Positions 11,729 through 34,733 of a stretch of 64,000 nucleotides of DNA are shown here, piece by piece. This DNA is from Alphaproteobacteria bacterium (GTDB taxonomy: Bacteria > Pseudomonadota > Alphaproteobacteria > JBFXJJ01): positions 145,998 to 209,997 of the forward strand of contig JBFXJJ010000003.1 of assembly GCA_050175015.1 (NCBI GenBank), read 5' to 3'. The notes under the pieces are model-generated. The model searched no databases. It was given only the letters and a program-made list of their open reading frames with translations, and was not told the DNA's origin. How positions within the stretch are numbered: the stretch's first letter is position 1; every line of letters begins with the position of its first letter. The translations under genes and the position numbers were made by a program.

Positions 11729-11759
11729 TTTAATTGTTTTTTAAGGAGATTAAAAAAAT

Positions 11760-12149
11760 ATGGCTGTAAGAATTAGATTATCAAGAGGCGGTTCTAAGAA
11801 ACGTCCTTTTTATAAAATTGTAGTTGCTGATCAAAGAGCTCCAAGAGACGGACGTTTTATTGAAAGAGTTGGAAGTTATAATCCTCTTCTTCCTAGAGAA
11901 CACGCCGATCGTCTTGTTTTAGTTGAAGACCGTATTAAACATTGGCTCAGCGTTGGCAGCCTTCCTACCGATAGAGTAGCAAGACTTCTTAACGAAAAAG
12001 GTTTATATGGAAAACCTGCTGTTAATGAACAAACTAAAAAAAGTCAGCCAAGACCTAAGACTGTTGAAAAAATGAAGCAGAAAGAAGAAGCTTTAAAAGC
12101 AAAAGCTGAAGCCGAAGCTGCTGCAAAAGCTGAAGAAGCTACAGCTTAA
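11760..12149 (+). CDS. rpsP: 30S ribosomal protein S16 with Ala/Lys/Glu-rich C-terminal extension
   Basis: Begins [35 protein letters not shown]. Lies in the ffh-rpsP-rimM-trmD-rplS synteny. Confidence 0.9.
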
Positions 12150-12158
12150 GGTAATTGT

Positions 12159-19093: not shown

Positions 19094-20532
19094 ACCTCCG
19101 TAACTAATTCGGGTTTTGTAATTTGGGTATAAAGCCTTTCCAGCATATTCGCTGCAACGGTTGCTCGGTAATCGCCTGATGCTCTAAAGTCGCTTATGGG
19201 TTTAAAATCATCAGCAACGGCTTTTTTGGCATCTAAGAAAATGTCTTGGGTTACGTCTTTGCCATTAAGTGTTTTTTCAAGATTATAAGCAGGTTTGGGA
19301 ATTTCAGCCATACCGCCAAAGCCCGTTGTAAAATAAACTATTTTATTATTTTCAATTTTAAAGAAGAAAGCTCCGCAAACAGAAGAAATGTCTTGGTCGT
19401 GGCGTTTGGTAACTTTATAAACTTTGAATTGGAAACCTTTTTTTGGAATGGGAATCTTTATACTTCTGATAAATTCGCCTTCTTGTAAGGCAGTTTTACG
19501 ATAGCCTAAGAAAAATTCTTTAAGGGGAAGTTCTCTTGTTGCATCTTGCTTTTGTAAGTTTACGCTGGCTCCAAGAGCAATTAAAGATGGGGCAGAATCA
19601 CCAATAGGCGAAGCATTGCCGATGTTGCCGCCGATTGTTCCCAAATTGCGGATTTGGGTTGAACCTATTTTCCGTATTAATTTGCCATATTCGGGAATAT
19701 ATTTTTCAATTAAAGGCAGAGCCTTGACATAAGGAACGCTCGCACCAATTTCAATAAAATCAGAATTTTCGGTTAAAATATTGAGTTCGGGAATATCACA
19801 GGTGTGAATTACAACATCAAGTTTTCTATCTGCCTTAGTTACTAAAAGACCTAAATCAGTACCGCCTGCAAAAAGATAGGCACTGCTGTAATGATGATAA
19901 AGGGAACATAATTCTTTAAGGCTTTTAGGCGAAAAATAGGAAGTTTCATTATTGATTTCTAGGGTGTCTTGACGATTTCTAATCTGCTCAAACTTAGATA
20001 GAAGCTCGGCTTCATTACGGCTATACCAATCATCTTTTTTTCCACCAGTCCTTCTTGCAGCATCAATAATCGGGCGGTATCCAGTACAGCGGCATAAATT
20101 GCCCGCCAGCATTTCGTGGATCGTATCATCATCTTCATTACCTGTAACATCAGCGTGATACCACGCAAATAAAGACATTATGAAACCTGGGGTACAAAAA
20201 CCACATTGGCTGCCGTGTAGTTCATACATAGCTTGCTGCACAGGGTGAAGTTTGCCTTCTTTTGAAGCCAATCCCTCAACCGTTATCAGCATTTTGCCAT
20301 CAAGCTTAGGAACAAAAATTATGCAGCTATTGACCGCCTTATATTCAATTTTTCCATTAACAGGTTCTGCTAGAACAACAGTGCAGGCACCGCAATCCCC
20401 TTCAGCACAACCTTCCTTGGTACCATTTAGATTTTGATTTTTGCGCAAATATTCTAAAACCGTCGTCGTTGGCGGAAGATTAGAAATTTCGGTAAGCTCA
20501 CCATTTAATAAAAATCTTATTTTATTTGTCAT
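19081..20532 (-). CDS. xdhA: Xanthine dehydrogenase small subunit (2Fe-2S + FAD-binding)
   Basis: FLLNGE...CAEGDCGACTV and CGFCTPG/CRCTGY 2Fe-2S motifs, then a FAD-binding CO-dehydrogenase-type domain. Likely start MTNKIRF at 20532 with AAGGAG 7 nt upstream. Confidence 0.85.
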   Translation of the reverse strand: MTNKIRFLLNGELTEISNLPPTTTVLEYLRKNQNLNGTKEGCAEGDCGACTVVLAEPVNGKIEYKAVNSCIIFVPKLDGKMLITVEGLASKEGKLHPVQQAMYELHGSQCGFCTPGFIMSLFAWYHADVTGNEDDDTIHEMLAGNLCRCTGYRPIIDAARRTGGKKDDWYSRNEAELLSKFEQIRNRQDTLEINNETSYFSPKSLKELCSLYHHYSSAYLFAGGTDLGLLVTKADRKLDVVIHTCDIPELNILTENSDFIEIGASVPYVKALPLIEKYIPEYGKLIRKIGSTQIRNLGTIGGNIGNASPIGDSAPSLIALGASVNLQKQDATRELPLKEFFLGYRKTALQEGEFIRSIKIPIPKKGFQFKVYKVTKRHDQDISSVCGAFFFKIENNKIVYFTTGFGGMAEIPKPAYNLEKTLNGKDVTQDIFLDAKKAVADDFKPISDFRASGDYRATVAANMLERLYTQITKPELVTEVWEL

Positions 20533-20542
20533 TTTTACTCCT

Positions 20543-21883
20543 TTAAGCTCGTGGTTTTTGGAAGTTTCCATATCCACGTGCTACACAAATTCCGTCTTTG
20601 TGATCGTAAACTTTGCTACCTCTTACAAACGTCTGATATATTTTACCTTTAAAAATCATATTTTCAAATGGGGTAACTTTGCCCTTAGATAAAAAATCAT
20701 CGCCTTTAATAAGCCATTCATCAGCAGCATTAATTAAAACTATATCGGCATCTTTGCCAACTTTAATGGAACCCTTGCGGTCATCTAGTTTAAATTTTTT
20801 AGCAGTATTAAGAGAAGTTATTTCTGATAATTTCTTTAATGAAATTTTGCCTTTTAAATATCCTTCAGAAAACATATAAGGAAACAGGGTTCCAACTCCA
20901 GGAATCCCGCCATAAGCCTGCCAGATAGAACATTGTTTGCGTTCTTTAGGGCAGGGTGCGTGATCTGAGGTGATAAAAGATATTTTACCATTTTGAACAA
21001 GCTGCCACAATTCTTCTTTGTTATGATTTGGTTTTATGGGAGGACATATTTTAAGCGGCGCTCCAATTTTTTCAAAATCATCTAAGGTGAAAGCAAGATA
21101 ATGAGGACAGGTTTCGCCTGACAAATAAGGTTCATCAAGAAAAGACGCAGCTTTTGCTGTTCCAATATGAACAATGTGTAAGTCTGTTTGATATTTTTTT
21201 GCCAGAGATACAACTTTTTTTACAGCGGTAATTTCAGCTTCCTCAGGACGTGATTGAGAAAATTCCTTAGGTGAGTTGGATTCCTTGTTAACCTTTGCTT
21301 GATTGCAAACATCTTCATCTTCAGCGTGAACCATAACAATGCGGTCAAGTTCCTTAGCTGTTTTCAAAACCTCGTCAAGTTCGTCATACGAAACTTTAGG
21401 AAAAGTTTCCATACCAGAAAGCGTATAGGTTTTATATGCTGCCACATAAGGTGCAATTTCTTTCATATTTAAAGGAAAACCTTCAGTCATAGAAAGATGA
21501 CTTACTCCGCCGTGAAAAGCAAAGTCGATTATGGCTTTAGGTGAAACAATGCTTAATTTGTTTTCTAAATTGTTAAGACTAGTTACAGGAGGCAGAGAAG
21601 TGCAGGGCATATCAATGATAGTTGTTACTCCTCCAGAAGCTGCGGCACTTGTTCCTTGGAAAAAATCCTCTTGGGTTTCAAAACCTGGATCATTAAAATG
21701 AACGTGAGAATCTATTGCTCCAGGAAGAGCAAGCAAGCCTTTAGCCTCAACCGTATTTTTAGCATCAGGTAAGTCAGAGCCAATAGCGGCAATTTTGCCA
21801 TCTTTAACCAAAATATCGGCTAAAATGGTTTCTTCATTGCCCTCTATTAAGACTTCGGCTCCGCTAATTTTTAAATCATACAT
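20543..21883 (-). CDS. Cyclic amidohydrolase (allantoinase/hydantoinase/dihydropyrimidinase family)
   Basis: DSHVHFNDPGFE...GTSAAASGGVTTIIDMP metal-binding signature of the DHOase/allantoinase superfamily. 446 aa. Confidence 0.7.
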   Translation of the reverse strand: MYDLKISGAEVLIEGNEETILADILVKDGKIAAIGSDLPDAKNTVEAKGLLALPGAIDSHVHFNDPGFETQEDFFQGTSAAASGGVTTIIDMPCTSLPPVTSLNNLENKLSIVSPKAIIDFAFHGGVSHLSMTEGFPLNMKEIAPYVAAYKTYTLSGMETFPKVSYDELDEVLKTAKELDRIVMVHAEDEDVCNQAKVNKESNSPKEFSQSRPEEAEITAVKKVVSLAKKYQTDLHIVHIGTAKAASFLDEPYLSGETCPHYLAFTLDDFEKIGAPLKICPPIKPNHNKEELWQLVQNGKISFITSDHAPCPKERKQCSIWQAYGGIPGVGTLFPYMFSEGYLKGKISLKKLSEITSLNTAKKFKLDDRKGSIKVGKDADIVLINAADEWLIKGDDFLSKGKVTPFENMIFKGKIYQTFVRGSKVYDHKDGICVARGYGNFQKPRA

Positions 21884-21892
21884 TTTTACCCT

Positions 21893-24460
21893 CTATTTTT
21901 TAATATAACCCATAGGAAGATTAAAACGCTGTTTGCCGTCAAAGACTCTGAAAGCGCCTGCAACCGCAGAAGCCGTTGGCACTAAGCCGATTTCGCCTAA
22001 ACCTTTAGCACCGTAGGGACCATATTGATCAATCTCTTCAATCGGAATTACTTTCACTTCGGGTGTTTCTTTTACTCTTAAGATACCAATTTTTCCAAAT
22101 TTAGTGTGTACGGGATAACCATCTTTCCATTCACAGTCTTCGGTCAAAGCATATCCTAAACCCATATGGACAGCACCTTCTACTTGCCCTTCATAAAGGG
22201 TTTTGTTGATGATTCTTCCAGAATCGTGAGCGGCGATAACTTTTTTGATTCTACCTTCATCATCTAAGATAACGCATTGTGTCGCATAGCTGTAAGAATA
22301 ATGGGCAAAAGGTTTTTCAGGAAGTGTTCCTTTAAATGAATTATTCGTAAAATCACAAATCCAGTGTCCTTGATATTCCTTGCCAACAAGATTTTTTAAA
22401 CCATATTTATTAAGGTCTTGATTGAACTTCTGACAGGCATCAAGCATAGCATTTCCTAAAAGGGAGGTTCCTCTTGATGAGGTTGTCATACCGGTTGAGG
22501 CTTCAGAGCAGGTTTCATTTTTAACCGTTACAATTTCAGGGCTAAGTCCTGTTTCTTCACAAAATACTTGTAGAGCGACGGTGTGTACGCCCTGTCCCAT
22601 TTCGGTCCAGCCGTGATAAAGTTCAATTTTATCTTCAGCTTTGACAATTATTTTTACCAAGCTTTCATCAATACCGCCGTTGCCGACGCCAGTATTTTTC
22701 ACTCCGCAGGCAATGCCTGCAAATTTTGCGTTTTTGAAGTCATCTTTAACCGCAAGAAGCGTTTTCTTAAGTCCAACGCCTTGTTCTAAAATTTGTCCTG
22801 ATGTGATCATTGAACCAACATCAAGCGCATTATCATAACGGAACTGCCATCTGTCGAAGCCTCCTTGATGACATAAGTCATCAACGCAGGATTCCATAGC
22901 AAAGTTGGATTGGTTAACGCCAAATCCACGCATAGCTCCGCAAGGGACATTGTTAGTATAGATAGCCTTGGCTTCAATATCGAGATTAGGAACTTCGTAA
23001 GCTCCAGAAGAATGTCCTGCCGCACGTTCCATAACTTTCATACCAACAGAGGCATAAGCTCCAGTGTCGCCCAAAATATTGGCTTTTAATGCGGTGAGTT
23101 TGCCATTCTTGTCGCAAGCTAAGGTATATTCCAGTTTCATAGGGTGGCGTTTGGGGTGCATAAGCATTGATTCTTCTCGTGACAGCCTAACCCTTACAGG
23201 GCATTGGCAGAGCATCGAGTATACTGCTGCGTGTCCTTGAACGGTTAAATCTTCTTTACCGCCAAAAGCACCGCCATTTTGAACTTGAATAACATTAATG
23301 TTATTTTCTTCAAGACCTGTTATTAAGGAAATCTGTTTGCGGTCGACATAGACCCCTTGTCCTTGAGAATAAACCGTCAGTTTGCCTTCATCTGTAGGCA
23401 GAGCAACCGCACATTCGGTTTCTAGAAAAGCGTGTTCAATACGTTGGGTTGTCCAAACACCTTTTGTAACATATGCCGCATTTTTTATGGCATTTTCAGG
23501 ATCGCCGATCTTAAGCGAGCTTACAGATAGGACATTGTTTTCATCCCCGTCGTGAACTATTGGAGCATTGGGTAAAATGGCATCTTCCATAGAGCAAACA
23601 GGTGTTAAAACTTCATAGTCAACTTTTATCAATGAAGCTGCAAAACGAGCGGTTTCTTCACTGTCGGCAACCACTCCTGCAATCACATCTCCAATATAAT
23701 TGGTAACATCGCCCTCTTTTATCATAAATGGCCAGTCTAGCCTTACTAATCCAACTTTATTTTTAGTTGGCAGATCTTTTGCGGTTATAATCCTTACAAC
23801 GCCCTTAACTTTAAGAGCTTCCGAGGCATCAATGTTTAAAACCCTAGCTTTGGGATATTCTGAAAATTTAAGCGCTCCGAATTTCATACTCTCAAAAGTC
23901 ATATCAAAAACATAAGGACGCTTTCCTATAACCGCCATTGCGGTTTCATATTTTGAGGTTCGGCTTCCTATTTTGCCATCTTCTTTAGGAATAGGAGGAG
24001 CTTCTCCTCTTAGAATTTCTGCTGTAAAAAGAACGGCATCAATAATTTTTTTATAGCCCGTACAGCGGCAGATATTGCGGTTAATCGCAGCTTTTATATC
24101 ATCAATACTGGGATTAATATTATCTTTTAGAAGGCAGTATGCACTCATAACAATTCCAGGGGTGCAAAAGCCACATTGAATTCCGCCTTTTTCAACAAAA
24201 GCCCTAATAAAAGCCTGTTTAAAATCTTCAGGAAGCCCTTCCGCTGTTATAACTTCTTTCCCTGCAATTTTGCTTAAAGGCGTAACACAGGAAAGAGTTG
24301 CTTTGCCATCGACACACACCGTGCAGGCTCCGCAACTTCCCTGAGAACAGCCATCTTTAGGGGTGGTATCACCCCTAAAAAGACGTAAGTAGTTTAACAA
24401 AGAAATTTTGCTATCGCCTGAAAATTTTATTTTTTCTCCATTTACAATAAATTCCAGCAT
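21893..24460 (-). CDS. Second molybdenum hydroxylase with N-terminal 2Fe-2S ferredoxin domain fused to MoCo subunit (E. coli XdhD-like)
   Basis: N-terminal CSQGSCGACTV and CGFCTPG/CRCTGY motifs. The remainder is homologous to Mo-binding large subunits (GGAFGGKE). No FAD domain. 855 aa. Confidence 0.75.
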   Translation of the reverse strand: MLEFIVNGEKIKFSGDSKISLLNYLRLFRGDTTPKDGCSQGSCGACTVCVDGKATLSCVTPLSKIAGKEVITAEGLPEDFKQAFIRAFVEKGGIQCGFCTPGIVMSAYCLLKDNINPSIDDIKAAINRNICRCTGYKKIIDAVLFTAEILRGEAPPIPKEDGKIGSRTSKYETAMAVIGKRPYVFDMTFESMKFGALKFSEYPKARVLNIDASEALKVKGVVRIITAKDLPTKNKVGLVRLDWPFMIKEGDVTNYIGDVIAGVVADSEETARFAASLIKVDYEVLTPVCSMEDAILPNAPIVHDGDENNVLSVSSLKIGDPENAIKNAAYVTKGVWTTQRIEHAFLETECAVALPTDEGKLTVYSQGQGVYVDRKQISLITGLEENNINVIQVQNGGAFGGKEDLTVQGHAAVYSMLCQCPVRVRLSREESMLMHPKRHPMKLEYTLACDKNGKLTALKANILGDTGAYASVGMKVMERAAGHSSGAYEVPNLDIEAKAIYTNNVPCGAMRGFGVNQSNFAMESCVDDLCHQGGFDRWQFRYDNALDVGSMITSGQILEQGVGLKKTLLAVKDDFKNAKFAGIACGVKNTGVGNGGIDESLVKIIVKAEDKIELYHGWTEMGQGVHTVALQVFCEETGLSPEIVTVKNETCSEASTGMTTSSRGTSLLGNAMLDACQKFNQDLNKYGLKNLVGKEYQGHWICDFTNNSFKGTLPEKPFAHYSYSYATQCVILDDEGRIKKVIAAHDSGRIINKTLYEGQVEGAVHMGLGYALTEDCEWKDGYPVHTKFGKIGILRVKETPEVKVIPIEEIDQYGPYGAKGLGEIGLVPTASAVAGAFRVFDGKQRFNLPMGYIKK

Positions 24461-27055
24461 TTACCTGTCCTTCATACTAAGAGCGCCAGTAAAGCACATC
24501 TTCGTACAATAGGTACAGCCAACGCATTTATTAGGATCAAATACAGGTTTGCGGTTAGCATCAAGTGTTACTGCTTGATAACCACAGTTAGTACAATTTC
24601 CGCAAGATAAGCAAAGATCTTGGTTGCAAGTTGGAATTTGCTTGGTTGCAGGAAGATCCATAAAGTCAGTAATAGGGTTAGGCAAAGCACAGCCGATAAG
24701 TTCATTAACAGATTTAATTCTTTTAGCTTCTAATAAGTGAGAAAGTCCAGAATTAAGTTCTTTTATAATATGAACGCCGTGTTTCATTGCAATGGAGCAG
24801 AATTGAACATTTCTAACGCCAAGGGCAAGGAAGTTTGCTGCGGCTCTGTAATCCATTGGACCGCCGTTGCCTGAAATGAAGACGCCGAGAGGTGCGGCAT
24901 TAGCTAATGTTAAATAGCTGATAGGGAGCACGCCCTCGCCAGCCATACCAGCAACAACACCTTCGTCCCATTTACTATTGCCATCTTTTCTTGGTCTAAA
25001 GCCAAGAGTAGGGAAAGAGTTAGCAAGAGTTATTCCTACTTTCGATTTAGGATAATTTGCCATTGCGCCTTTAACCGCATTAATAATAGGAACGATGGAG
25101 GTAACCGCTGCGGTTAATTTGAAAATTTTAGGAATGTCAGGATTGCCTGCTTCTAAGACATATTCAATAATTTGTTGAGTTAGAGCCGCATTCTGGGAAA
25201 CAATATCCCCTTCGGTGCCATCACCGCCTTGAGGGCAGGAAAGGCTGTATTCAACCCCGATAACGCCTGCATCTTCAAGTTTTTTAGTGTTCGACTGCCA
25301 GCCTTTGCGGTCTGATTCTTCGTGTCCCGTAACAGGACCGCCGGTTGATGCCATTGTTAATCTGTCAGGATATTTTTTCCTTAGCTCTTCAACTTCACGG
25401 CAAACTCTTTCTAAGGCGTGATCAGAAACGTTATCGCAGTTAGCAAAAGTTGATTTAGTATAAGCAAACATATATCCAGCAGGAACGTGAATTGGAATAC
25501 CATCAAATGATGTTTTAAGAACACCGCCTGTCCAGCCATTTTGATATGCAAGCTTCATCTGATCGATACCGTCGGTGTGAGGCGCTGCTGACAAAATGAA
25601 AGGAGATGACATTTTAAAGCCGAAGAAATCACAAGTTAAATCAACAGGATTGGTATTAATACCTTCAACAGAGGTACGGCTTTTAGCTCTTTGTTTAACT
25701 AAAACCGAGGTTTTTTTCAAACTTTCATCGGTTTTTGTGCCATTTAAAAGAGCGTCAATATCGAGAGCTGCATTCTTACCAGAAGCAACAGCTTCAACAG
25801 CGGTTGAACCACCGTGAACACAATCGCCAGCATAAAATATTTTAGGATTTTTATCACTTTGGGTTTTATGACTGCCGCCAAGATATGATGCCTTGCCGCC
25901 AATAGCTAAAATAACTAGGTCAAAATCAGGACGTTTTACAGATGTTCCTGCAATATCAACTAACTTGCCTTCGTTGTTGTTAGTCGTTTTACAGGTTGTA
26001 AGCGTCTTTTTGCCATTTTCTTCAGTTATTTTTTCAACTCTGGTTCTGGTTGTAATATCAATTTTAGCGTCAAGTAAAAGCTGTCTTTCGTGTGATGTTA
26101 AACGCATATCTGCAACCGTTCTTCTAACAAACATTTCAACTTGAGAAGAACCAAGTCTTTTAGCTTCAGTTGCACAGTCTACAGCCACGGCTCCGCCGCC
26201 AATAATAGCAACGTTACCTTTGGTTTTATATTTTGCGGTATCTTTCAAATATTCCGTGAAAGGAAGCGCATTTTCAAGTTCGCCGTCAACTCCTAAGACA
26301 GAAAAATCAGGTTCGCCAACCGCAATCAAAACAGCATCAAAACCTTCCTTTAATAAACTTTCAGCATCTTCAACTTTAGTGTTTGATTTTAAAGTAATAT
26401 GGCTGGCTTCAAGCGTGAACTCATAATCTGCTTTGATGGCATCATCAGGCAGACGGCAATCTGGAATAAGAGAAGCGGCACCGCCTAAAACGTTTCTTTC
26501 ATCAAAAAGGGTGATTTCATAGCCTTTTCTTCCTAGGAAAGCAGCAGCTCCAATGCCCGCAGGTCCAGCGCCGATAACTGCTACTTTTCTGCCGTTTTTC
26601 GCTGGTTTTGCAGGAGCTTTAAGAACGCCTAAGTCTCGAGCTTTTTTGATGACGGTTGCTTGAATAGCAGGAATATTAATAGCTTTATCAAAGTTTTTCT
26701 TAGAGCAAGCACCCATACAAAGATTATCAGGGCAGATAATGCCGCAAACGTGTCCCAAAGGGTTTGCTGCTAAAATTTCTTTAGCCGCTCTGGCTATATC
26801 TTGTGGGGCTCCTTGTTTTGCTGCCATAATAAAGTCAGCAGGAGAACAGTGAACAGGGCAGCCTTCAAGACAAGGCTTATCTGCGCAGTATAAACATCTA
26901 TCAATTTCAGCTTGCAGCTGAGCATCAGTTAAATAAAGATTATTAGTCAAAATTTGCTCCTTAAAAATTATTAAGATTTTTTTATTAGAAACGATTCCAA
27001 AGATTCTTTGCAGCTTCCATAGATTTTGCCGCAGCTTCTTTTTCATCAACATCAA
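24461..27055 (-). CDS. Dihydropyrimidine-dehydrogenase-like flavo-iron-sulfur oxidoreductase (YgfK/PreT-PreA fusion type)
   Basis: N-terminal Cys cluster (CLYCADKPCLEGCPVHC). Two dinucleotide folds (VAVIGAGPAGIGAA and VAIIGGGAVAVDCA). DHODH-like barrel. C-terminal 2x[4Fe-4S] ferredoxin (CLSCGNCTNC...CVGCTYCTKMC). 864 aa. Confidence 0.7.
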   Translation of the reverse strand: MMLMKKKLRQNLWKLQRIFGIVSNKKILIIFKEQILTNNLYLTDAQLQAEIDRCLYCADKPCLEGCPVHCSPADFIMAAKQGAPQDIARAAKEILAANPLGHVCGIICPDNLCMGACSKKNFDKAINIPAIQATVIKKARDLGVLKAPAKPAKNGRKVAVIGAGPAGIGAAAFLGRKGYEITLFDERNVLGGAASLIPDCRLPDDAIKADYEFTLEASHITLKSNTKVEDAESLLKEGFDAVLIAVGEPDFSVLGVDGELENALPFTEYLKDTAKYKTKGNVAIIGGGAVAVDCATEAKRLGSSQVEMFVRRTVADMRLTSHERQLLLDAKIDITTRTRVEKITEENGKKTLTTCKTTNNNEGKLVDIAGTSVKRPDFDLVILAIGGKASYLGGSHKTQSDKNPKIFYAGDCVHGGSTAVEAVASGKNAALDIDALLNGTKTDESLKKTSVLVKQRAKSRTSVEGINTNPVDLTCDFFGFKMSSPFILSAAPHTDGIDQMKLAYQNGWTGGVLKTSFDGIPIHVPAGYMFAYTKSTFANCDNVSDHALERVCREVEELRKKYPDRLTMASTGGPVTGHEESDRKGWQSNTKKLEDAGVIGVEYSLSCPQGGDGTEGDIVSQNAALTQQIIEYVLEAGNPDIPKIFKLTAAVTSIVPIINAVKGAMANYPKSKVGITLANSFPTLGFRPRKDGNSKWDEGVVAGMAGEGVLPISYLTLANAAPLGVFISGNGGPMDYRAAANFLALGVRNVQFCSIAMKHGVHIIKELNSGLSHLLEAKRIKSVNELIGCALPNPITDFMDLPATKQIPTCNQDLCLSCGNCTNCGYQAVTLDANRKPVFDPNKCVGCTYCTKMCFTGALSMKDR

Positions 27056-28316
27056 TCGTTAGATGTTTGTTTTCCATTAGGACTTTTCCAGCACAAATTG
27101 TGGTATCAACCTGAGCAGAATTAAAGCCAAAAACTAAATGTCCTAAGACATTGCTGGCATCAAGAGGGGTAGGTGGGTATTGATCCAGCATTACAATATC
27201 AGCGGCTCCGCCTTCTTTAAGTTCACCTAAACCGATGTTGTTCCAGATACGGTTAGCAATTTTAGGATTGTTAAACCATAAGGCAGATGCTCCTTCAACA
27301 AAGCCCGCGGAAGGATTTCTTTGGTTGTATTTTTGCGCCCAGATGGCACAGCGAACTTCTTCACGCATATCAACTGTCATTGCATCTGTTCCGAGACCAA
27401 CGAGAATGCCTTTTTCAAACATTTTAACCGTGTTGGCAATTCCAACAGCATTATTCAAATTAGACTGAGGATTGTGAACAACCATAGTATTCGTTTTTGC
27501 TAAAAGATCTAATTCATTGTCATTGGTATGAACGCAGTGAACACATATGGTGTCTTTGCCTAGAACGCCCATTTTGTTGAAGCGTTCAACAACTCTTAAA
27601 CCGTGTTCTTTGACGCAGGCATCTTCATCACTTTCAGCTTCTGCCGTGTGAACGTGAAAACCTGTTTTTAGATCTTTAGCGAAAGAAACGCATTTTTCTA
27701 AAGTTTTATCACTTACGGTAAAAGAGGCGTGAAGTCCGAATAACGCCGTTAGCTGCTCATCATTTTCTTTCTGGCAGCGTTTAATAAAGTTGACGTTTTC
27801 CTCAATACCTTCTTCGGCAATTTTTTCACCGTCTCTATCGGAAACTTCATAGCATAAACAAGAGCGCAAACCAGTTTCTTTAACAGCTTCGGCAATGGTA
27901 TCAAGAGAACCTGTAATTGCAAAAGGACTGGCGTGATGATCGATTAAAGTTGTGGTTCCGCTTTTTATAGCGGCGATAAGGGGGAATAAGGCACTATAGT
28001 AGGTGTCTTCTAGTGAAAGTTTGGTATCTAAACGCCACCAAAGGTTTTTAAGCACTCCTCCAAAATCATAAGCTGGTTCAGCTTTGCCAAGACCTCTTAC
28101 TAAGGTGCTGTAAAAATGCATATGAGCATTAATGATTCCTGGGATAACGATTCTGCCGTCGGCGTTTATTTCTTTATCAAAAGAGCCTTTGATTTCATCA
28201 TCTTTGGCGATTTTAACAATCTTATTATTTTCAACCAAGATAGAATGATTAGGCAAAACGCGACCGTTTTCACCACCTGTAATAACAAGTGCATTGCGAA
28301 CGATTAAATTGGACAT
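26985..28316 (-). CDS. SsnA-like amidohydrolase (guanine/cytosine deaminase-chlorohydrolase family)
   Basis: HxH metal motif (INAHMHF) and TIM-barrel amidohydrolase layout. Probable start MSNLIVRNALVI at 28316 with a GGAG RBS. Confidence 0.65.
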   Translation of the reverse strand: MSNLIVRNALVITGGENGRVLPNHSILVENNKIVKIAKDDEIKGSFDKEINADGRIVIPGIINAHMHFYSTLVRGLGKAEPAYDFGGVLKNLWWRLDTKLSLEDTYYSALFPLIAAIKSGTTTLIDHHASPFAITGSLDTIAEAVKETGLRSCLCYEVSDRDGEKIAEEGIEENVNFIKRCQKENDEQLTALFGLHASFTVSDKTLEKCVSFAKDLKTGFHVHTAEAESDEDACVKEHGLRVVERFNKMGVLGKDTICVHCVHTNDNELDLLAKTNTMVVHNPQSNLNNAVGIANTVKMFEKGILVGLGTDAMTVDMREEVRCAIWAQKYNQRNPSAGFVEGASALWFNNPKIANRIWNNIGLGELKEGGAADIVMLDQYPPTPLDASNVLGHLVFGFNSAQVDTTICAGKVLMENKHLTIDVDEKEAAAKSMEAAKNLWNRF

Positions 28317-28387
28317 ATTTTTCTCCAGATAAAAATATTTTGAACTAAATATTTTATTTGGTTTATCCAAAATTTACAACGATTTTC

Positions 28388-29749
28388 TCAATTTTGTTTA
28401 TTCTCGTCATCATCTTCCTGTGAAGGTGCTGCTACTTCCTTCAATCTTTCTTTTTCATCAGCAGGAAGAAACTTATCCGCTAAAGCCCAATACAAAGATT
28501 GTTCACAAAAAGTCTTTGAAACCGCATAAGAAATCATAGATACGGCGAGTAGAGAGATGGTTGTTTTTTGGTCGCTGGTCATTTCCATAACAATAACAGC
28601 TGCAGTTATTGGAGAGTGGACAACGCTAGAGAAATAGCCTGCCATACACATAATGATTATAACAGATTTTGTCATATCTGGAAAAAAGTCAGCGATATTA
28701 GCGCCAATGCCTGCTCCAATAGATAGTGATGGCGCAAAAATGCCGCCAGGAATACCACTTATATATGAAAGAATGGTTGCAAGAAATTTATAAAAACCAA
28801 ACCATAAGGTTTCAATATCTTGCCCTTGAATTAACTTACAAGCTTGTTCATATCCTGTGCCAAAAGTAAGATTACCAGAAAGTCTTCCTATGATTGCAAT
28901 TAAAAGACCGCAGATCGCTGCAAAAATTACAGGACGGGCTTTTGTGAAAGCACTTAGCTTTTTGCCAAGAACTTTATCGGTATGGATAATGGTATAATTA
29001 AAGATTGTGCCGATAAGACCGCAGACTATACCGCATAAAATTACTAGATAGACCCAGTTTTCGTGAGAATCTATTAAAAGATTACTGCGTCCGAAATAGG
29101 TATAGTTGCCAGTAATAGACATAGAAACAATACCAGCAATAACAACGGTTGTTAAAACGATACCGCTGGTTTTGGTTTCAAAGGAACGGCTTAATTCTTC
29201 AATGGCAAAAACAATTCCTGCTAATGGAGTATTAAATGCTGCTGCAACTCCTGCGGCACCTCCTGCCAGAATTAATGATTTTCTAGTCTTGTAACTAGAA
29301 ATATGAAGGAAGCGTCCTAAAAAAGACATAATTGACGCTCCAATCTGAACCGTAGGACCTTCTCTGCCAATTGAAGCTCCGCCACAAAGACCAAGCATTG
29401 TTATAAAAATTTTACCGCAGGCTATTTTCATAGATAAGAGTTTAAAGCATTCGGCTTTTTTGCGAATGTGCATTGCTGCGATAGTCTGTGGAATGCCGCT
29501 GCCTTCAGATCCTTGGAAAAAAGACTTAGTTAAATAAACACCAAAAGCCATAAAAGATGGTGTTATGATTAAGGCAAGCCAATTATTTTTTTCCAGCATT
29601 TTAAAGAAAAGAGTGTCGGCAAAAAAACTGCCTTTGGCAAAAAAAACGGCAACAATCCCGACTGCCATAGCGCCAAGCCAATACACAAGGCGATATAACC
29701 ATATATTGGGTGATACCCACCACCGGTGATTATGCCTGAAAATTATCAT
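28388..29749 (-). CDS. ClC family voltage-gated chloride channel/H+-Cl- antiporter
   Basis: GSGIPQ, GREGP and GxFxP selectivity-filter motifs. About 10-12 TM helices. Confidence 0.8.
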   Translation of the reverse strand: MIIFRHNHRWWVSPNIWLYRLVYWLGAMAVGIVAVFFAKGSFFADTLFFKMLEKNNWLALIITPSFMAFGVYLTKSFFQGSEGSGIPQTIAAMHIRKKAECFKLLSMKIACGKIFITMLGLCGGASIGREGPTVQIGASIMSFLGRFLHISSYKTRKSLILAGGAAGVAAAFNTPLAGIVFAIEELSRSFETKTSGIVLTTVVIAGIVSMSITGNYTYFGRSNLLIDSHENWVYLVILCGIVCGLIGTIFNYTIIHTDKVLGKKLSAFTKARPVIFAAICGLLIAIIGRLSGNLTFGTGYEQACKLIQGQDIETLWFGFYKFLATILSYISGIPGGIFAPSLSIGAGIGANIADFFPDMTKSVIIIMCMAGYFSSVVHSPITAAVIVMEMTSDQKTTISLLAVSMISYAVSKTFCEQSLYWALADKFLPADEKERLKEVAAPSQEDDDENKQN

Positions 29750-29991
29750 TTTGAAATGTTTGTTTTCTTTGTTATTTTTTAGTCTTACACAACTAAAGAC
29801 AAGGTATATTACTTAAAATAATCAATGTCAACCAAGCTTTGAGAGTTTTTTTAAATGTTTTCGTATTAAAATTTTTTAAGAGATACAGCAAAGTTTTAGG
29901 ATAAAATTGTTATAGATTTTAAGGCGCGGTATTTTTTAGATTGAATAGTAATTTTTTTGTTTTTGTTAGAAGCAAATAACTTGGCAAATTA

Positions 29992-31137
29992 CTAAATTCT
30001 AACTCCTAATAGGCGGATTAAAGCAGTTTCGCAAGGAACAGATTCATTTAAGGCAATCATATGACCTAGGCCTTGAGCTTCGAGTTTACCAATTTCGTCA
30101 ACGACTAATATATCGGCATTTTTGCGGGCATCTATAATTGTTTTTTTAGCATAACTCCAAGCATCATCATAAAAGTCAAACCAGAGTCCATTTTTTGCAG
30201 GAGTTTCTCGGCGGCGAGCTAGTGGTATATGTTCACCTGTTGCGACATTCTCAACGTCATATCCTGAAGAATCAAAATCACCATTAAGCGAAGGTTGTAA
30301 AATGCCGCCAACTTTAAAACCTTGTTGCGATAATTCCGAAACAACACGTTTTAAAAAGCTGGTTTTTCCGCTTCTTTTCTCGCCTTTTATTTCTAAAGTA
30401 AAAGGAGGAACGTCAGGAAGAAGAGGCTTAATTTCCTCCCAATTATCTTTAGTATTAAGGTTAAAACTTCCAAAATCATTAGAGTATGGTAAGGCAAAGC
30501 CAATTTTATCCATAATATTATCAAAACGAGCTGTTTGAGGGGTTTCTTTTAAAACGTCTAATGCCGTTGTTTGAGACAACCAGACAGGCTGAATCTTAGT
30601 ATTGTTTTTTTCATAGAATAACGCATTATGATTGCTGTTATAAGCGGCATTACAAAGAGTGTGCCAAGAAGATATTTGGCAGGATATACGATCAACGGCG
30701 TGAAATAAAATGCCTTTTTCCAAATCATTTTTAAAAAAGCGTATTCCGGCCTGAACCGAAGAGAATGGTCCTTGTTCATAATCGTTATTAACGACAATAG
30801 AGAGATTTAAACTGCCGAGTTTAACATCGCACGGGGGCGTCAAACCATTTAAAAAGCTAAGTTCTTCAAAATAAGAGGATATATGATGCCCGAGCACGAT
30901 AACCGCTTTTTTTCCTCCGGCTCTACGAAAAACATCAAGCAGCAACATAATTAATGGCCGGTCTTGATGTTTTAAGAGCCCCTTAGGATATCCCATACGG
31001 CTTGATTTACCTCCTGCCATAATAATTAATGGCGGTAAATCATTAGCACTAATCAAGGATTTTATTGATGTTCTCACTTCTTCCCAGTGTGATAACATTA
31101 TGTTCCTTTGTTTTTCTGCTAGTTTCACGAGAGCCAA
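29992..31137 (-). CDS. Fusion: MocA/YgfJ-like molybdenum-cofactor nucleotidyltransferase + P-loop NTPase (THEP1/MobB/YqeC-like)
   Basis: N-terminal LIIMAGGKSSRMGYPKGLL (MobA-like NTP-transferase). C-terminal Walker A GEKRSGKTSFLKR and Walker B LVVDEIGKLE. Confidence 0.6.
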   Translation of the reverse strand: MALVKLAEKQRNIMLSHWEEVRTSIKSLISANDLPPLIIMAGGKSSRMGYPKGLLKHQDRPLIMLLLDVFRRAGGKKAVIVLGHHISSYFEELSFLNGLTPPCDVKLGSLNLSIVVNNDYEQGPFSSVQAGIRFFKNDLEKGILFHAVDRISCQISSWHTLCNAAYNSNHNALFYEKNNTKIQPVWLSQTTALDVLKETPQTARFDNIMDKIGFALPYSNDFGSFNLNTKDNWEEIKPLLPDVPPFTLEIKGEKRSGKTSFLKRVVSELSQQGFKVGGILQPSLNGDFDSSGYDVENVATGEHIPLARRRETPAKNGLWFDFYDDAWSYAKKTIIDARKNADILVVDEIGKLEAQGLGHMIALNESVPCETALIRLLGVRI

Positions 31138-32590
31138 TACCTGTCAGCAAAAGACCAATGTTTTCATTAGAGTTTATTAATCCTTTAGTTGCCATTTCGA
31201 TAACAGCGGCAACGCTAGCGGTTCCTGTAGCCGAAACATTAATATTAGTTGCTTTTTTGGTAAGCTTGTTTGCTTTATCTAAAGTTTTTTCATCTGCGAT
31301 TAATGGTAAACCTCCAGATTCAAGCATACCGATTACGACTTCTAAGCCATCATACGTCGTATCGTCTAAGATGCCTTCCGCTATGCTTTCAGGAACATTG
31401 TCAGCCCAAGCTTTAAAGAAATTACTGCGCTGTGCAGCAACATCAAGTAAGACTTTTTGTAAGGCTTGGTTTGATGAAAAGTTAGAAGACAGCTCTTTTG
31501 CAAAACTGTTAAGCTCTTGAGGATATTTTTCTAAAATATCTTTAGGATCTATGTCAGTTTCAACGGCGCTTTTTAAATTTTCAGCTAAAGTCACAGCTCC
31601 TTTTAAAGAAGCTTCTTTCAATATCGCAAAGTAAGATTTGGCAAGCGGATAGCAACTTGCAGTCTGCACAGTATAAAATCTAGGCAGTTTTTTTATTATT
31701 CCAAGTTTTAAAAGATTTTGTATGCCATTGATCATAGATTTAGCTAGGCCGCCGCCTCCAATTTGAACAATAAAGGCATCAATGTCTGTTTGATATTTTT
31801 CCATATCAAAGAAAAACTCATAGGCTAAAGGTTCTGCTCCCTCAATGCTTGACCAAATATCATAACCATAGCAAGAAAAGGGAACAAAATTAAGCTTGTT
31901 CAAAGCTTCTCTAAAACGGATATTGCAGGGATCTCCTTCACCAACTTGTCCCTCGCGAGATACTTTTACGACTTTGGCATCTAAATTGGTTAAAAGATTT
32001 TCAATTTTGCTGTCTACATGTTCTGGAACAAAAGTATAAAGAGGATAATCAAAAGCTTTTGCCGCAGCAGAGGCACCTAAAGCTGCATTGCCGCAACTGA
32101 AAATAGCTAAAGGCTTTTTATGTCCGCCTTTTAACATTCTTAATGTTTCCAAGTAGATAATAGAACCGGCTAAATGACGGGATTTATGTGAACCCATAAG
32201 CTGCAGAGTTTCGTTTTTAGCAAAAATATTGCAATCAGCCTTTATTGATTTAGCAAGCTCGTCAGCTTTGAATAATGGCGTTCTAACAAATCCTTTGCTT
32301 GTATTTTTTTCACACATTTTGCTGGCAGTTTTTACCATTTTCTGCCATTCATCAGATTTATTATGAACATTAGCCAAGTGCCAGCTTCCAAGTAGTTCTT
32401 TAAAAGCATTAAAGGACAATTCGCCGCTGTTATAACGATTTCTAATTTCTTCAATTAAATTTTGAGGAAAATCACCATCTTCAAATTTCAAAACAAAAGG
32501 ATGAGACGCTGCCTCGGTACTTTCGGGGCAGCGCAATAATCCTTCTTCCAAATTATATGATTTTCTACAAATTGGACAGTAAAGTTTCAT
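31049..32590 (-). CDS. PLP-dependent fold-type-II enzyme (threonine-synthase-like) with N-terminal Cys-rich zinc-ribbon-like motif
   Basis: GSHKSRH lysine motif (compare tGSFKDRg). Begins CPICRKSYNLEEGLLRCPE. 513 aa. Its start is 1 nt from the upstream gene stop. Confidence 0.5.
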   Translation of the reverse strand: MKLYCPICRKSYNLEEGLLRCPESTEAASHPFVLKFEDGDFPQNLIEEIRNRYNSGELSFNAFKELLGSWHLANVHNKSDEWQKMVKTASKMCEKNTSKGFVRTPLFKADELAKSIKADCNIFAKNETLQLMGSHKSRHLAGSIIYLETLRMLKGGHKKPLAIFSCGNAALGASAAAKAFDYPLYTFVPEHVDSKIENLLTNLDAKVVKVSREGQVGEGDPCNIRFREALNKLNFVPFSCYGYDIWSSIEGAEPLAYEFFFDMEKYQTDIDAFIVQIGGGGLAKSMINGIQNLLKLGIIKKLPRFYTVQTASCYPLAKSYFAILKEASLKGAVTLAENLKSAVETDIDPKDILEKYPQELNSFAKELSSNFSSNQALQKVLLDVAAQRSNFFKAWADNVPESIAEGILDDTTYDGLEVVIGMLESGGLPLIADEKTLDKANKLTKKATNINVSATGTASVAAVIEMATKGLINSNENIGLLLTGIGSRETSRKTKEHNVITLGRSENINKILD

Positions 32591-32591
32591 C

Positions 32592-34058
32592 TTATAAAGC
32601 TTTCAATAGGCCAGTCATATCATTGAATTCACGAATTAAATCGTCCCATTCACTTACTTGAGCGAATATTGAATCCCATGTTTCTGGTTTCCAAAGTTCA
32701 TTCAAATCTTTGCTTTCTTTTCCTTGCTGTTCAACCCAAGTAAAGTATTTCAAGTTATGGATAGCTTTTCTATCATAATATGAAAGTTCTTTTAAGTTGG
32801 ATTTGTCAGCAGCATAGAGGCAAGATTCTAAATCACAATTTCCTCTGATTTCACCATATTCACCATGTTTCTCACGTTCTTCAATGACACGAGAAGTATA
32901 CATTTCGGCAGAATCTGTAAACATTGTGTAGATTACATCGTTTTCATCCATTTCATAATATTTTGCCATTTTGACAGCAGAAACAAGGTTAGAAATAGAT
33001 GAAATACCCATAAGGTTAAGATTTTTGATAACTTCGTCAGAAACACCTCTAGACTTAAGAACTTTGTGTCCAGATGGTTCGTTGAAGAGACGGAGAAGTC
33101 TCATGCAATCTTCATCGTCAATAGCAACAACCATATCAGTATTACGGGAGTTATGAACCCAAGGAACGTGTTTATCACCAATACCTTCAATGCGATGTCC
33201 ACCAAAACCGTTAAGTAACAAAGTTGGGCACTGTAAAGCTTCAGATGCTGCGATTTTGAGGCTTGGAGATACTTTCTTTAAATAATCGCCAGCACCAATA
33301 GTTCCAGCACTTCCTGTCGCACTTACAAAGCCTGAAAGTCTTTTTTGTTTATTAGACAGAGTTCCAAAATGCTCTTCAATAGCTTTAGCTGTAACGTGAT
33401 AGTGCCAAATTGGATTACCAAATTCATCAAATTGATTGAAAATTACGCAGTCTTTACGGTTTTTGCGTATATCCCAGCAAGCGTCATAGATTTCTTTAAC
33501 GTTGCTTTCACATCCCGGAGTCGCAATGATTTCGGCACCGATACTTTTTAACCAATCAAAGCGTTCTCTGCTCATTTCTTCAGGAAGAATAGCAACAGAA
33601 GTACAGCCAAGCAAAGTACCGTCAAAAGCACCGCCACGACAGTAGTTGCCAGTTGATGGCCATACTGCTTTTTGTGTGGTTGGGTCAAATGATCCGCTAA
33701 CTAATCTTGGGGCTAAACAGCCGAAAGCAGCACCAACTTTATGAGCACCAGTTGGAAAATACTTACCAACCATACCAATAATTCTAGCTTTTACGCCGGT
33801 GATTTCTGAAGGAATTTCGAAAGTGTTAACATCGCCATAGAGTTCCGTTTTAGGATCGTTTCTCCAAGTGATACGGAAAAGGTTAATTGGGTTTACATCC
33901 CAAAATCCAACGCCTTTTAATTTTTTCTTGATTTTCTCAGGAATTTTGTCAGGGTGGCGCATTTCCTCAAATGTTGGGACAATAATATTACGTTCACGAC
34001 AACGCTCAACTGTTTTTGCTAGGACCTTTTTATCAATGTTTTCAATTATTTTTTTCAT
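32592..34058 (-). CDS. PLP-dependent fold-type-II enzyme, TrpB/cysteine-synthase-like
   Basis: FPTGAHKVGAAF (compare the TrpB HTGAHKIN lysine motif). 488 aa. First gene of the long operon. Confidence 0.5.
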   Translation of the reverse strand: MKKIIENIDKKVLAKTVERCRERNIIVPTFEEMRHPDKIPEKIKKKLKGVGFWDVNPINLFRITWRNDPKTELYGDVNTFEIPSEITGVKARIIGMVGKYFPTGAHKVGAAFGCLAPRLVSGSFDPTTQKAVWPSTGNYCRGGAFDGTLLGCTSVAILPEEMSRERFDWLKSIGAEIIATPGCESNVKEIYDACWDIRKNRKDCVIFNQFDEFGNPIWHYHVTAKAIEEHFGTLSNKQKRLSGFVSATGSAGTIGAGDYLKKVSPSLKIAASEALQCPTLLLNGFGGHRIEGIGDKHVPWVHNSRNTDMVVAIDDEDCMRLLRLFNEPSGHKVLKSRGVSDEVIKNLNLMGISSISNLVSAVKMAKYYEMDENDVIYTMFTDSAEMYTSRVIEEREKHGEYGEIRGNCDLESCLYAADKSNLKELSYYDRKAIHNLKYFTWVEQQGKESKDLNELWKPETWDSIFAQVSEWDDLIREFNDMTGLLKAL

Positions 34059-34208
34059 AAATTATTAGCTCCAGAAATAAAAATTAAATACTGCGAATGC
34101 AGTGTATTAAGAAAATTAGAACTTAAATATAATAAGATGAGATAAAATAAAGACAAGCTTATTTTACACGTGTCAATAAAACTATTTTTTATAAAAAAAT
34201 TTATAATA

Positions 34209-34577
34209 TTAACGAGGATAACCGACTCTTACGTCTGTGCTATTAATACTTGGTTCAAGGTAGCAGTCTGGCTCGGCAAGAGTTCGATAACAGTATACTT
34301 GAGGTCTTTTACCTGCAGGTTGAGGTTTTTGGCGGCATACTTCGCCATTGTCTATTTGTGCCCGAGGCGTTGAGCAGTCAAGCCCAGTCATCTTTGAAGC
34401 GATATGATCGCCAATTGTTTTTTGAGTTCCCATAACAGAAGCAGCTTCAACTCCGACAAGGGTTGCTGCAGGAGAGAGTCCCAAAGGCATTACACTCGAT
34501 TCTGTAGTCAAAAAACAGCCTGATAATAACAAAAACATTGGAATCATAAGGCTTTTTATTAGGCTTTTTAGAAACAT
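34209..34577 (-). CDS. Small Cys-containing lipoprotein
   Basis: Signal peptide plus lipobox LLLSGC (start taken at MFLKSL). Same strand and upstream of the purine operon. Confidence 0.45.
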   Translation of the reverse strand: MFLKSLIKSLMIPMFLLLSGCFLTTESSVMPLGLSPAATLVGVEAASVMGTQKTIGDHIASKMTGLDCSTPRAQIDNGEVCRQKPQPAGKRPQVYCYRTLAEPDCYLEPSINSTDVRVGYPR

Positions 34578-34733
34578 AGTTTTTGTCCTTGAATTAATGT
34601 ATATGTTTAATTTTACCAACTTAAAATTAACAAAAACCTAATTTAAAAGTTAAAAATTAAAAAATCTTTATAATAAGTTCATCTTCTAGTTTGCGTTCTT
34701 TGACTAACAATACTATTCTTTGGTAAAAATAAT

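Follow-up and report, generated by a model that had tools for sequence, protein, structure and literature searches.

The 64,000-nt stretch of DNA analysed here (the window; positions 145,998 to 209,997 of contig JBFXJJ010000003.1, assembly GCA_050175015.1) comes from an alphaproteobacterial metagenome-assembled genome, of which only these 64 kb were in view. It encodes two adjacent pyridoxal 5'-phosphate (PLP) enzymes of fold type II, here called PLP-1 and PLP-2, at the start of an array of purine-catabolism genes. We consider it probable, at roughly 0.55, that the pair is a terminal catabolic module of the reductive urate pathway and stands in for YgeX. The observations that carry this reading are that both enzymes are intact and lie outside the curated families CysK, CBS, SbnA, ThrC, DpaL and TrpB; that the pairing and coupling of PLP-1 and PLP-2 are conserved, within reductive urate clusters, across many phyla; and that the partner of a constant PLP-1, either PLP-2 or a ThrC-like protein, alternates with DpaL. 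The pathway itself is known, but its unstudied and probably terminal PLP pair, from two uncharacterised enzyme families, is new.

The reductive (2,8-dioxopurine) urate pathway was published in 2025 for E. coli and Clostridia (bioRxiv 10.1101/2025.05.19.654654; 10.1101/2025.04.24.650524). According to these two papers, XdhD converts urate to 2,8-dioxopurine, YgfK or UacX carries out a reduction, and SsnA and HyuA open the rings. Two ureido groups are then removed (by YgeW plus YqeA, or UacY, and by YgeY), and in the last step the PLP enzyme YgeX converts 2,3-diaminopropionate to pyruvate and ammonia; the intermediates are reported to pass through D-specific enzymes. One of the papers counts any PF00291 neighbour of SsnA as “YgeX”, so that a variant with a PLP pair would be masked, and neither mentions the PLP-1 or PLP-2 genes. 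In the literature on albizziin, dioxopurine and isoxanthine, secondary sources for which full text was at hand only for Prevotella copri uricolysis, we found no paper treating these genes. A first-pass annotation of the window had held that such PLP enzymes are not part of canonical purine degradation; the 2,8-dioxopurine pathway, however, already ends in one of fold type II, YgeX. The pair looks like an alternative terminal module and not like an unrelated branch.

Both open reading frames (ORFs) were found where the first-pass annotation had placed them, together with their junction:

32592..34058, minus strand: PLP-1, a 488-aa CysK/CBS-like fold-type-II PLP enzyme
31049..32590, minus strand: PLP-2, a 513-aa ThrC-like fold-type-II PLP enzyme
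32588..32594, minus strand: the PLP-1/PLP-2 junction TAA-g-ATG (PLP-1 stop, 1 nt, PLP-2 start)

PLP-1 and PLP-2 matched Pfam PALP (PF00291, gathering score 35) with 58.1 and 101 bits, respectively, and the motifs pointed out earlier (TGAHK in PLP-1, GSHKSRH and CPICRK...RCPE in PLP-2) were all present. The junction reads ...GCT TTA TAA g ATG AAA..., with a 1-nt spacer as previously described, an arrangement consistent with translational coupling.

PLP-1 carries FPTGAHK with the PLP lysine Lys107 (codon 33738-33740), an Asn-loop (S135-T-G-N138), a Gly-loop (S246..G249-S-A-G-T253) and an invariant C277-P-T. Helical extensions of ~80 aa at the N-terminus and ~95 aa at the C-terminus are kept even in relatives that are 41-49% identical. 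Lys107 aligns with the PLP lysine of yeast cystathionine beta-synthase (CBS) and is invariant among PLP-1 homologues in the family alignments. The AlphaFold2 model, with a predicted local distance difference test score (pLDDT) of 88, has CysK and CBS as its nearest PDB structures, including the H2S-producing CysK-like proteins Fn1055 and Fn1220; both proteins have the two-domain alpha/beta fold, and the best PDB matches of the two models (CysK/CBS for PLP-1, ThrC/TdcB for PLP-2) reached template modelling scores of 0.75-0.83 over the target. PLP-1 nevertheless fell below the curated cut-offs for cysteine synthase (TIGR01139, 109.1 versus 350.95 bits; TIGR01136, 104.1 versus 344.15; TIGR01138, 48.8 versus 394.2), CBS (TIGR01137, 93.5 versus 510.25, with no CBS-domain Pfam match), SbnA (TIGR03945, 49 versus 350) and DpaL (16 versus 276), and no match placed it in the TrpB or TrpB-like models.

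Compared with CysK/CysM, CBS and SbnA/CmnB, PLP-1 is 19-26% identical and scores at about one third of the curated cut-offs. Its lysine motif, GAHKVG, is TrpB-like whereas the CysK clade has S-V/I-K-D-R; it adds the N- and C-terminal domains, conserved family-wide, and an invariant ESNVKEIYD in addition to C277-P-T; and it is found among genes of purine catabolism instead of genes for sulfur assimilation or siderophore synthesis. In sequence alignments the whole CysK-type machinery for beta-replacement is retained, with a GISS motif whose serine presumably faces the pyridine nitrogen as in CysK. The loop position of Thr136 is non-discriminating, since CysK and serine racemase both have Ser there. 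The family has more than 8,000 database matches, at 60-70% identity across phyla, the top 120 of which are 65-88% identical and come from several phyla, and clustering at 50% collapses it to few full-length representatives. Distant full-length relatives (31-46% identical) reached no curated cut-off, some giving sub-threshold CysK-type matches. No conserved small ORF was seen adjoining PLP-1.

PLP-2 contains MGSHKSRH with the PLP lysine Lys136 (32183-32185), an N-terminal CPICRK...RCPE segment (residues 5-23) that belongs to a Zn-ribbon of C5, C8, C21 and H30 (nt 32501-32578), an SCGN loop with Cys166 (32093-32095), a helical insertion of ~70 aa (about residues 322-395) and a GILDDxTYD motif. 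Lys136 aligns with the PLP lysine of Aquifex ThrC; it is nearly invariant in a 40-sequence PLP-2 alignment, as is Cys166, and invariant in a 19-sequence alignment with ThrC-like proteins and DpaL. The AlphaFold2 model (pLDDT 94.7) has Aquifex ThrC (2zsj, 20% identity) as its nearest PDB structure, and the fold-type-II serine and aspartate racemases are among its structural neighbours. PLP-2 also remained below the ThrC cut-offs (PRK05638, 80.4 versus 421; PRK08197, 73 versus 303; no TIGR00260 match) and matched none of the DpaL models NF006058, TIGR03528 and TIGR01747. Profile-profile comparison of the PLP-1 and PLP-2 family alignments gave a probability of only 23%, indicating that these are two different fold-type-II subfamilies, and the PLP-2 family is the rarer and more divergent one. 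The earlier family guesses are thus borne out by profile scores, alignments and structure matches: PLP-1 is CysK/CBS-like with a TrpB-like GAHK, and PLP-2 is ThrC-like with an N-terminal Zn-ribbon.

PLP-2 and a 412-aa ThrC-like family (hhalign probability 99.95%, E = 2e-37, 18% identity) are homologous sister families, both with the N-terminal Zn-ribbon. The ~70-aa insertion is extra in PLP-2 relative to that family, and the loop after the PLP lysine is S-C-G-N in PLP-2, S-T-G-N in the ThrC-like family and PLP-1, and T-D-G-N in DpaL. In the joint alignment the acidic GILDDxTYD stands where ThrC-like proteins have ADSIxVDxPRN, a segment that we take to include a phosphate-binding residue in ThrC; the PLP-2 motif might better accommodate a distal group that is cationic or neutral than a phosphate. 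With archaeal-type Zn-ribbon threonine synthase (PRK05638/PRK08197) and the ThrC-like cysteate synthase, PLP-2 shares the fold, the N-terminal CxxC...C Zn-ribbon and the lysine position. It differs from threonine synthase in the lysine motif (GSHK[SAG]RH versus SFKDR), in SCGN versus STGN and in the insertion, and the 412-aa ThrC-like partner of Bacteroidales and Elusimicrobia is nearer to ThrC than PLP-2 is. No thrB or hom genes were found near PLP-2. One PLP-2 homologue (P0151, L084 10001-11551), in a region without PLP-1, keeps the lysine but has SQGS for SCGN and a replaced GILDD; it may be a decaying or repurposed copy.

We then asked how PLP-1 is placed in other genomes. Among 81 PLP-1 loci from a species-level genome collection (homologues 59-71% identical, genes scored within 10 kb), drawn from Elusimicrobia, Bacteroidales, Ignavibacteria, Planctomycetes, Verrucomicrobia, Myxococcota, Clostridia and others, an XdhD-like gene (about 1,000 bits) occurred in 37, a YgfK/DPD-type (dihydropyrimidine-dehydrogenase-type) reductase in 31 and SsnA in 28. 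The typical Bacteroidales order is YgfK-PLP1-ThrC-like-XdhD-SsnA-(HyuA), preceded by a divergent Lrp/AsnC regulator, with a YgeW-type carbamoyltransferase, YgeY, MocA, XdhAB and XdhC also nearby. Ignavibacteria-type clusters run YgfK-SsnA-YgeY-ThrC-like-HyuA-XDH-carbamoyltransferase-PLP1-MocA (XDH, xanthine dehydrogenase) or carbamoyltransferase-PLP1-YgeY-YqeA. The Lrp/AsnC-type regulator, recognised from N-terminal sequence only, lies divergently and immediately upstream of PLP-1 in L069 (3295-3765) and nine other Bacteroidales loci, which hints that the operon may be under amino-acid-responsive control there. The recurrent neighbours that were annotated comprise this regulator, permeases, a tripartite ATP-independent periplasmic (TRAP) transporter, an F420-type reductase, a PhzF-like protein and a haloacid dehalogenase-type (HAD) hydrolase; no urease was among them.

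The partner of PLP-1 differs between these loci. In 37/81 PLP-1 adjoins the 412-aa Zn-ribbon ThrC-like protein, which lies elsewhere in the locus in 5 more. The ~410-aa PALP protein beside PLP-1 in other phyla was at first taken for DpaL and proved to be this ThrC-like protein. Genuine DpaL adjoins PLP-1 in three loci (L015, L028 and L061; 416-425 bits against a cut-off of 276, with E. coli YgeX at 638 bits as a control), and no ThrC-like protein is present there. The two never share a locus, DpaL being absent from all 42 ThrC-like loci.

For PLP-2, 80 metagenomic loci were found with the family alignment, 66 of them with enough flanking sequence. A PLP-1 homologue (350-470 bits) was immediately adjacent in 59 of the 66, in the order PLP-1 then PLP-2 in 49 and in reverse in 10, and 25 of the 36 analysable PLP-1-to-PLP-2 junctions were 4-nt ATGA/GTGA overlaps. 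XdhD, SsnA, YgeW, YgeY, YqeA, YgfK or HyuA was also present in 31/80 loci (~40%), and DpaL in none of the 80. Loci L113 and L132 read XdhD-SsnA-[luciferase-like F420-type reductase]-carbamoyltransferase-carbamoyltransferase-YqeA-PLP1-PLP2 and match the “Chloroflexota-type” variant described before, except that the PLP pair occupies the YgeX position. The luciferase-like (F420-type) oxidoreductases (L113 4385-5464, L132 4578-5780) sit between ssnA and the tandem carbamoyltransferases, and the PLP pair is at the start or end of the operon. In L128, L133 and L134 the pair is flanked by YgeW-YgeY-YgfK-HyuA, and a Victivallales locus reads PLP1-PLP2-YgeY-YgeW-YgfK-ThiS-like-SsnA-XDH.

Compact PLP2-PLP1-YgeY-YgeW modules were also observed (L094 1-9684, L100 6929-15514, L105 3769-10398). 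A DctPQM TRAP transporter lies upstream of the module in L094 and L100, and L094 and L105 have a PhzF-like protein downstream of it. The available sequence of these three loci showed no molybdenum enzyme, which points to small-molecule catabolism, and the modules may serve to import a ureido amino acid. These modules bear on another reading, that the pair takes part in molybdenum hydroxylase maturation and, alongside the MocA-like cytidylyltransferase-NTPase (nucleoside triphosphatase) fusion encoded next to it, generates or passes on, for instance through cysteine or selenocysteine chemistry, the sulfur or selenium of the terminal Mo=S/Se ligand. In L170, the closest relative with both genes, SsnA, a YgfK-like reductase, YgeW and YgeY diverge from PLP1-PLP2-MocA-NTPase, a trio thus conserved (MocA-NTPase 11541-12683); in the short contig L169 PLP-2 is followed by MocA-NTPase (2094-3143), and in L082 (MocA-NTPase 11598-12644) and L083 these two genes occur together without nearby purine genes. 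A maturation role would also agree with the match of the window's XdhD-like protein to the “selenium-dependent XDH” model and with Fn1055 and Fn1220 among the nearest structures of PLP-1. The selenium-maturation partners sought as candidates count on the same side, since YqeC was never found and YqeB appeared solely as weak XdhC-like matches, in 88 loci. We consider this role quite unlikely, however, because the pair accompanies a TRAP transporter, YgeY and YgeW where no molybdenum enzyme was detected, because the catabolic DpaL takes the place of PLP-1's partner in three loci, and because PLP-1 sits between the carbamoyltransferase and YgeY in Ignavibacteria-type clusters. MocA, moreover, is expected beside any XDH that depends on molybdopterin cytosine dinucleotide, whatever the PLP genes, and the PLP enzymes known to mobilise sulfur or selenium for the molybdenum cofactor (NifS, IscS, ABA3) are of fold type I. 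The first-pass suggestion of a sulfur or selenium donor accordingly finds little support.

The conserved neighbourhood also argues strongly against ordinary biosynthetic enzymes, a cysteine synthase and a threonine synthase that merely lie beside a purine operon. Source annotations of the homologues do read “cysteine synthase” and “threonine synthase”, and with 184-193 bits the ThrC-like partner of Bacteroidales exceeds the generic TIGR00260 cut-off of 167. Yet PLP-1 scores 109 against 351 for CysK and 93.5 against 510 for CBS, PLP-2 scores 80 against 421 for ThrC with no TIGR00260 match, both proteins have family-specific extensions or insertions, PLP-2 has the acidic GILDDxTYD in place of ADSIxVDxPRN, and the two genes keep their places beside each other and beside urate-pathway genes in many phyla. 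We regard this explanation as most improbable, and housekeeping cysK, thrC and trpB were rejected on curated cut-offs and conserved synteny. The first-pass annotation had named clear orthology to housekeeping genes, or loss of the PLP lysine on alignment, as grounds for giving up its interpretation; neither was found, as no housekeeping trpB, cysK or thrC emerged by the curated cut-offs and both lysines hold on alignment.

YgeX/DpaL, like the pair, belongs to fold type II of the PLP enzymes and is encoded in comparable clusters (XdhD, YgfK-type reductase, SsnA, HyuA, YgeW, YgeY, YqeA), its PLP lysine and x-x-G-N loop align with those of PLP-2, and genuine DpaL fills the slot beside PLP-1 in the three loci missing the ThrC-like partner. 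Identity between PLP-2 and the three aligned DpaL sequences, E. coli YgeX among them, is only 13-15%, however, and its Zn-ribbon and ~70-aa insertion are not found in DpaL. Cys166 of PLP-2 is at the position of DpaL Asp120, which in the E. coli enzyme is the second catalytic base for the D-isomer; neither PLP-2 (S-C-G-N) nor PLP-1 (S-T-G-N) has an Asp120-type second base in a T-D-G-N loop. Two enzymes, moreover, are present here instead of one. That PLP-2 is a divergent DpaL was rejected, as it matches no DpaL model, has this low identity and is a sister of the ThrC-like family.

In the window, PLP-1 and PLP-2 are the first two of ten co-directional minus-strand genes (16745-34058). The other features of the array and its upstream region are:

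34059..34208, minus strand: AT-rich intergenic region of 150 nt 5' of PLP-1, with GGAG 11 nt before the ATG and weak -35/-10-like hexamers
29992..31137, minus strand: MocA-like cytidylyltransferase fused to a MobB/THEP1-like P-loop NTPase (NTP_transf_3 75 bits, NTPase_1 61 bits)
28388..29749, minus strand: ClC-type chloride channel/antiporter (Voltage_CLC 304 bits), ending 18 nt upstream of ssnA
26985..28370, minus strand: SsnA, ring-opening amidohydrolase and marker of the reductive urate pathway (NF005540, 541 bits versus a cut-off of 444)
24461..27055, minus strand: dihydropyrimidine-dehydrogenase-like fusion of PreT-like (FAD/Fe-S) and PreA-like parts, in the YgfK/UacX role, start uncertain
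21893..24460, minus strand: XdhD-like molybdenum hydroxylase of the “selenium-dependent XDH” family, DOPDH-like (TIGR03311, 892 bits versus 830)
20543..21883, minus strand: allantoinase/hydantoinase-like cyclic amidohydrolase in the HyuA role (TIGR03178, 369 versus 358; 154 bits versus E. coli HyuA)
19081-20577, minus strand: canonical XdhA (TIGR02963, 577 bits)
16745-19093, minus strand: canonical XdhB (TIGR02965, 1148 bits)

Because SsnA, an XdhD-type molybdenum enzyme, a dearomatising flavin reductase and a hydantoinase-type hydrolase occur together, as they do in the published clusters, the array qualifies as a reductive urate cluster and, on its gene content, is the upstream half of the pathway. 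No homologue of ygeW/uacY, ygeY, yqeA or ygeX (DpaL) was found within the 64-kb window; ygeW-, ygeY- and yqeA-type genes are present in relatives' clusters, and relatives also carry the YgeW/YqeA, YgeY or F420/luciferase-type reductase variants known from published clusters. The published clusters end with YgeX, whereas this variant has PLP-1/PLP-2 or PLP-1/ThrC-like instead. The reductase is a fusion of ~860 aa that scores 104 bits against E. coli YgfK; being a DPD-like PreT/PreA fusion and not an E. coli-type YgfK, it would be a third dearomatising solution beside YgfK/UacX and the F420/luciferase type.

The first-pass annotation had put the pair at the head of a purine operon. Its position at the head of the array stands, but transcription of the array as one unit is only a possibility, since a 243-nt gap separates gene 3 (29992) from gene 4 (29749) and a promoter scan gave no convincing signal anywhere, with counts at or below shuffle expectation. 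The best match (9/12 at 34156-34129) was not above chance; 34059..34208 is the likely promoter region for PLP-1. The terminator scan detected no terminator-like site in the 243-nt gap. The start of the MocA-NTPase gene is uncertain (31137 TTG, 31098 ATG or 31020 ATG), so that it overlaps or closely follows PLP-2, and its product gave weak matches to MocA/YgfJ and the DVU_1551 family.

Other features of the region were noted in passing. The ClC gene lies inside the purine array and none was seen in the related clusters examined; pH/anion balance or urate/anion transport is conceivable. Canonical XdhAB and the XdhD-like enzyme are encoded in one array (16745-24460, minus strand), and no yqeB, yqeC or selD is visible in the window. 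Just downstream of xdhB are two tandem CheY-like stand-alone receivers (15293-15838 and 15985-16518, minus strand; 177 and 181 aa) with no output domain detected, and directly upstream of the PLP-1 promoter region is a 136-aa ORF (34209-34619, minus strand) whose N-terminus resembles that of a lipoprotein and which matched nothing in Pfam or NCBIfam. The G+C content is 0.39-0.41 over the core of the array (18001-28000) and 0.31-0.36 in much of the flanks, and PLP-1 is 71-73% identical to proteins of unrelated phyla; the cluster may have been horizontally acquired. The rest of the window is housekeeping (ftsY, ffh, trmD, asd, der, bamB, murD and others), with no missing pathway gene among it.

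A possible route can be drawn from these genes. XdhAB makes urate. Dearomatisation of the purine and opening of both rings would fall to the XdhD-like enzyme, the DPD-like reductase, SsnA and the hydantoinase/allantoinase-like enzyme and would leave a C3 amino-acid skeleton with two ureido groups. Removal of the ureido groups by YgeW- and YgeY-type enzymes, encoded in relatives' clusters and not in the window, would yield 2,3-diaminopropionate or its 3-ureido precursor albizziin, which the PLP pair would convert to pyruvate and ammonia. The ThrC-like partner (PLP-2) would be the positional and probably the functional substitute for YgeX/DpaL, using Lys136 and possibly Cys166 as a second base. 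PLP-1 would add CysK-type aminoacrylate chemistry, i.e., beta-elimination or beta-replacement of an N-linked beta-substituent (amino or ureido); its candidate roles include urea or carbamate beta-elimination from albizziin, beta-replacement to serine or cysteine, and handling of the D/L configuration. That the two genes are so tightly coupled suggests that their products catalyse consecutive steps or form a complex.

The YgeX-replacing module is supported by the retention of the catalytic lysine, Asn loop and Gly-rich phosphate loop in both proteins and by their confident prediction as fold-type-II structures. From the conserved pairing, the embedding in urate clusters, the absence of DpaL from PLP-2 and ThrC-like loci and the alternation of partners, we infer that the C3 amino acid left by ring cleavage is the substrate of the pair; which compounds each enzyme would use and how the two would share the work are likewise deduced. 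The first-pass annotation had thought of an amino-acid-like ring-cleavage product as the substrate, and this idea fits the synteny with SsnA, XdhD, YgfK, YgeW, YgeY and YqeA as well as the replacement by DpaL in three loci.

Several points weigh against a terminal module that replaces YgeX. PLP-1 has no PLP partner in the 10-kb flank in 23/81 loci, mostly Elusimicrobia, where at least 1.5 kb was available on both sides; most of these lie among housekeeping genes and show no purine gene, but about half a dozen carry XdhD, SsnA, a YgfK-type reductase or a carbamoyltransferase (e.g., L030, L050, L076). L061 has the complete YqeA-YgeW-YgeY-YgeX set plus PLP-1, so that PLP-1 is not a simple replacement of any E. 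coli enzyme. The alternation of DpaL and the ThrC-like protein rests on three DpaL loci, and their exclusivity is not significant (hypergeometric p ~0.12). With no YgeW, UacY or YgeY types in the window, the visible genes alone cannot make the substrate of the pair. The closest alphaproteobacterial relatives of PLP-2 lack PLP-1 and lie next to flbT, with or without MocA-NTPase, and the Bacteroidales ThrC-like partner is just above the generic thrC cut-off. The catalytic roles of both families, finally, are predictions from sequence.

The persistence of PLP-1 beside YgeW-YgeY-YgeX in L061 also suggests that it adds something that DpaL does not do, and this leads to an assimilatory or salvage role, in which PLP-1 would use diaminopropionate or albizziin for beta-replacement to serine or cysteine, or one of the two enzymes would racemise the product of a D-hydantoinase route for an L-specific partner. 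Such a role is compatible with most of the data: PLP-1 keeps the full beta-replacement apparatus including GISS, D-specific enzymes are reported for the pathway intermediates, serine and aspartate racemases are structural neighbours of PLP-2, and some modules include a PhzF-like protein with its isomerase/epimerase fold. It is rather unlikely in our view, as in the related loci examined neither a sulfur-assimilation gene nor a second substrate-supplying gene recurred beside the pair, most pair clusters are without DpaL so that some enzyme must still perform the final deamination, and racemisation has no residue-level support, the position of Thr136 being Ser in both CysK and serine racemase. 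Somewhat bolder than the YgeX-replacing module, and only tentative, is the idea of a dedicated system of two PLP enzymes, PLP-1 and its ThrC-like partner, which might assemble into a heteromeric complex and would catalyse an undescribed reaction at the end of anaerobic purine breakdown. Examples would be ureido beta-elimination or exchange of 3-ureidoalanine, or a coupled conversion of D-2,3-diaminopropionate by a Lys/Cys two-base mechanism.

The reductive urate pathway is now used to predict urate-removing microbes, which matters for gout and for the nitrogen cycle of anoxic habitats. The window and about 170 related loci show that YgeX is absent in many lineages (Bacteroidales, Ignavibacteria, Elusimicrobia, Planctomycetes, Verrucomicrobia, the F420/luciferase-type soil-metagenome clusters and this alphaproteobacterium), with an unstudied conserved PLP pair in its place, a difference that neighbourhood surveys at the Pfam level would miss by scoring the pair as “YgeX”. 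Characterisation of the pair would complete the pathway for these organisms and assign a function to the PLP-1 family and its partner, and it may reveal new beta-carbon C-N chemistry or another end product (e.g., urea, serine or cysteine as opposed to ammonia and pyruvate). If the two enzymes do carry out an undescribed reaction together, they would represent two new enzyme families and a distinct terminal branch that is apparently frequent in the sampled environmental (non-gut) lineages.

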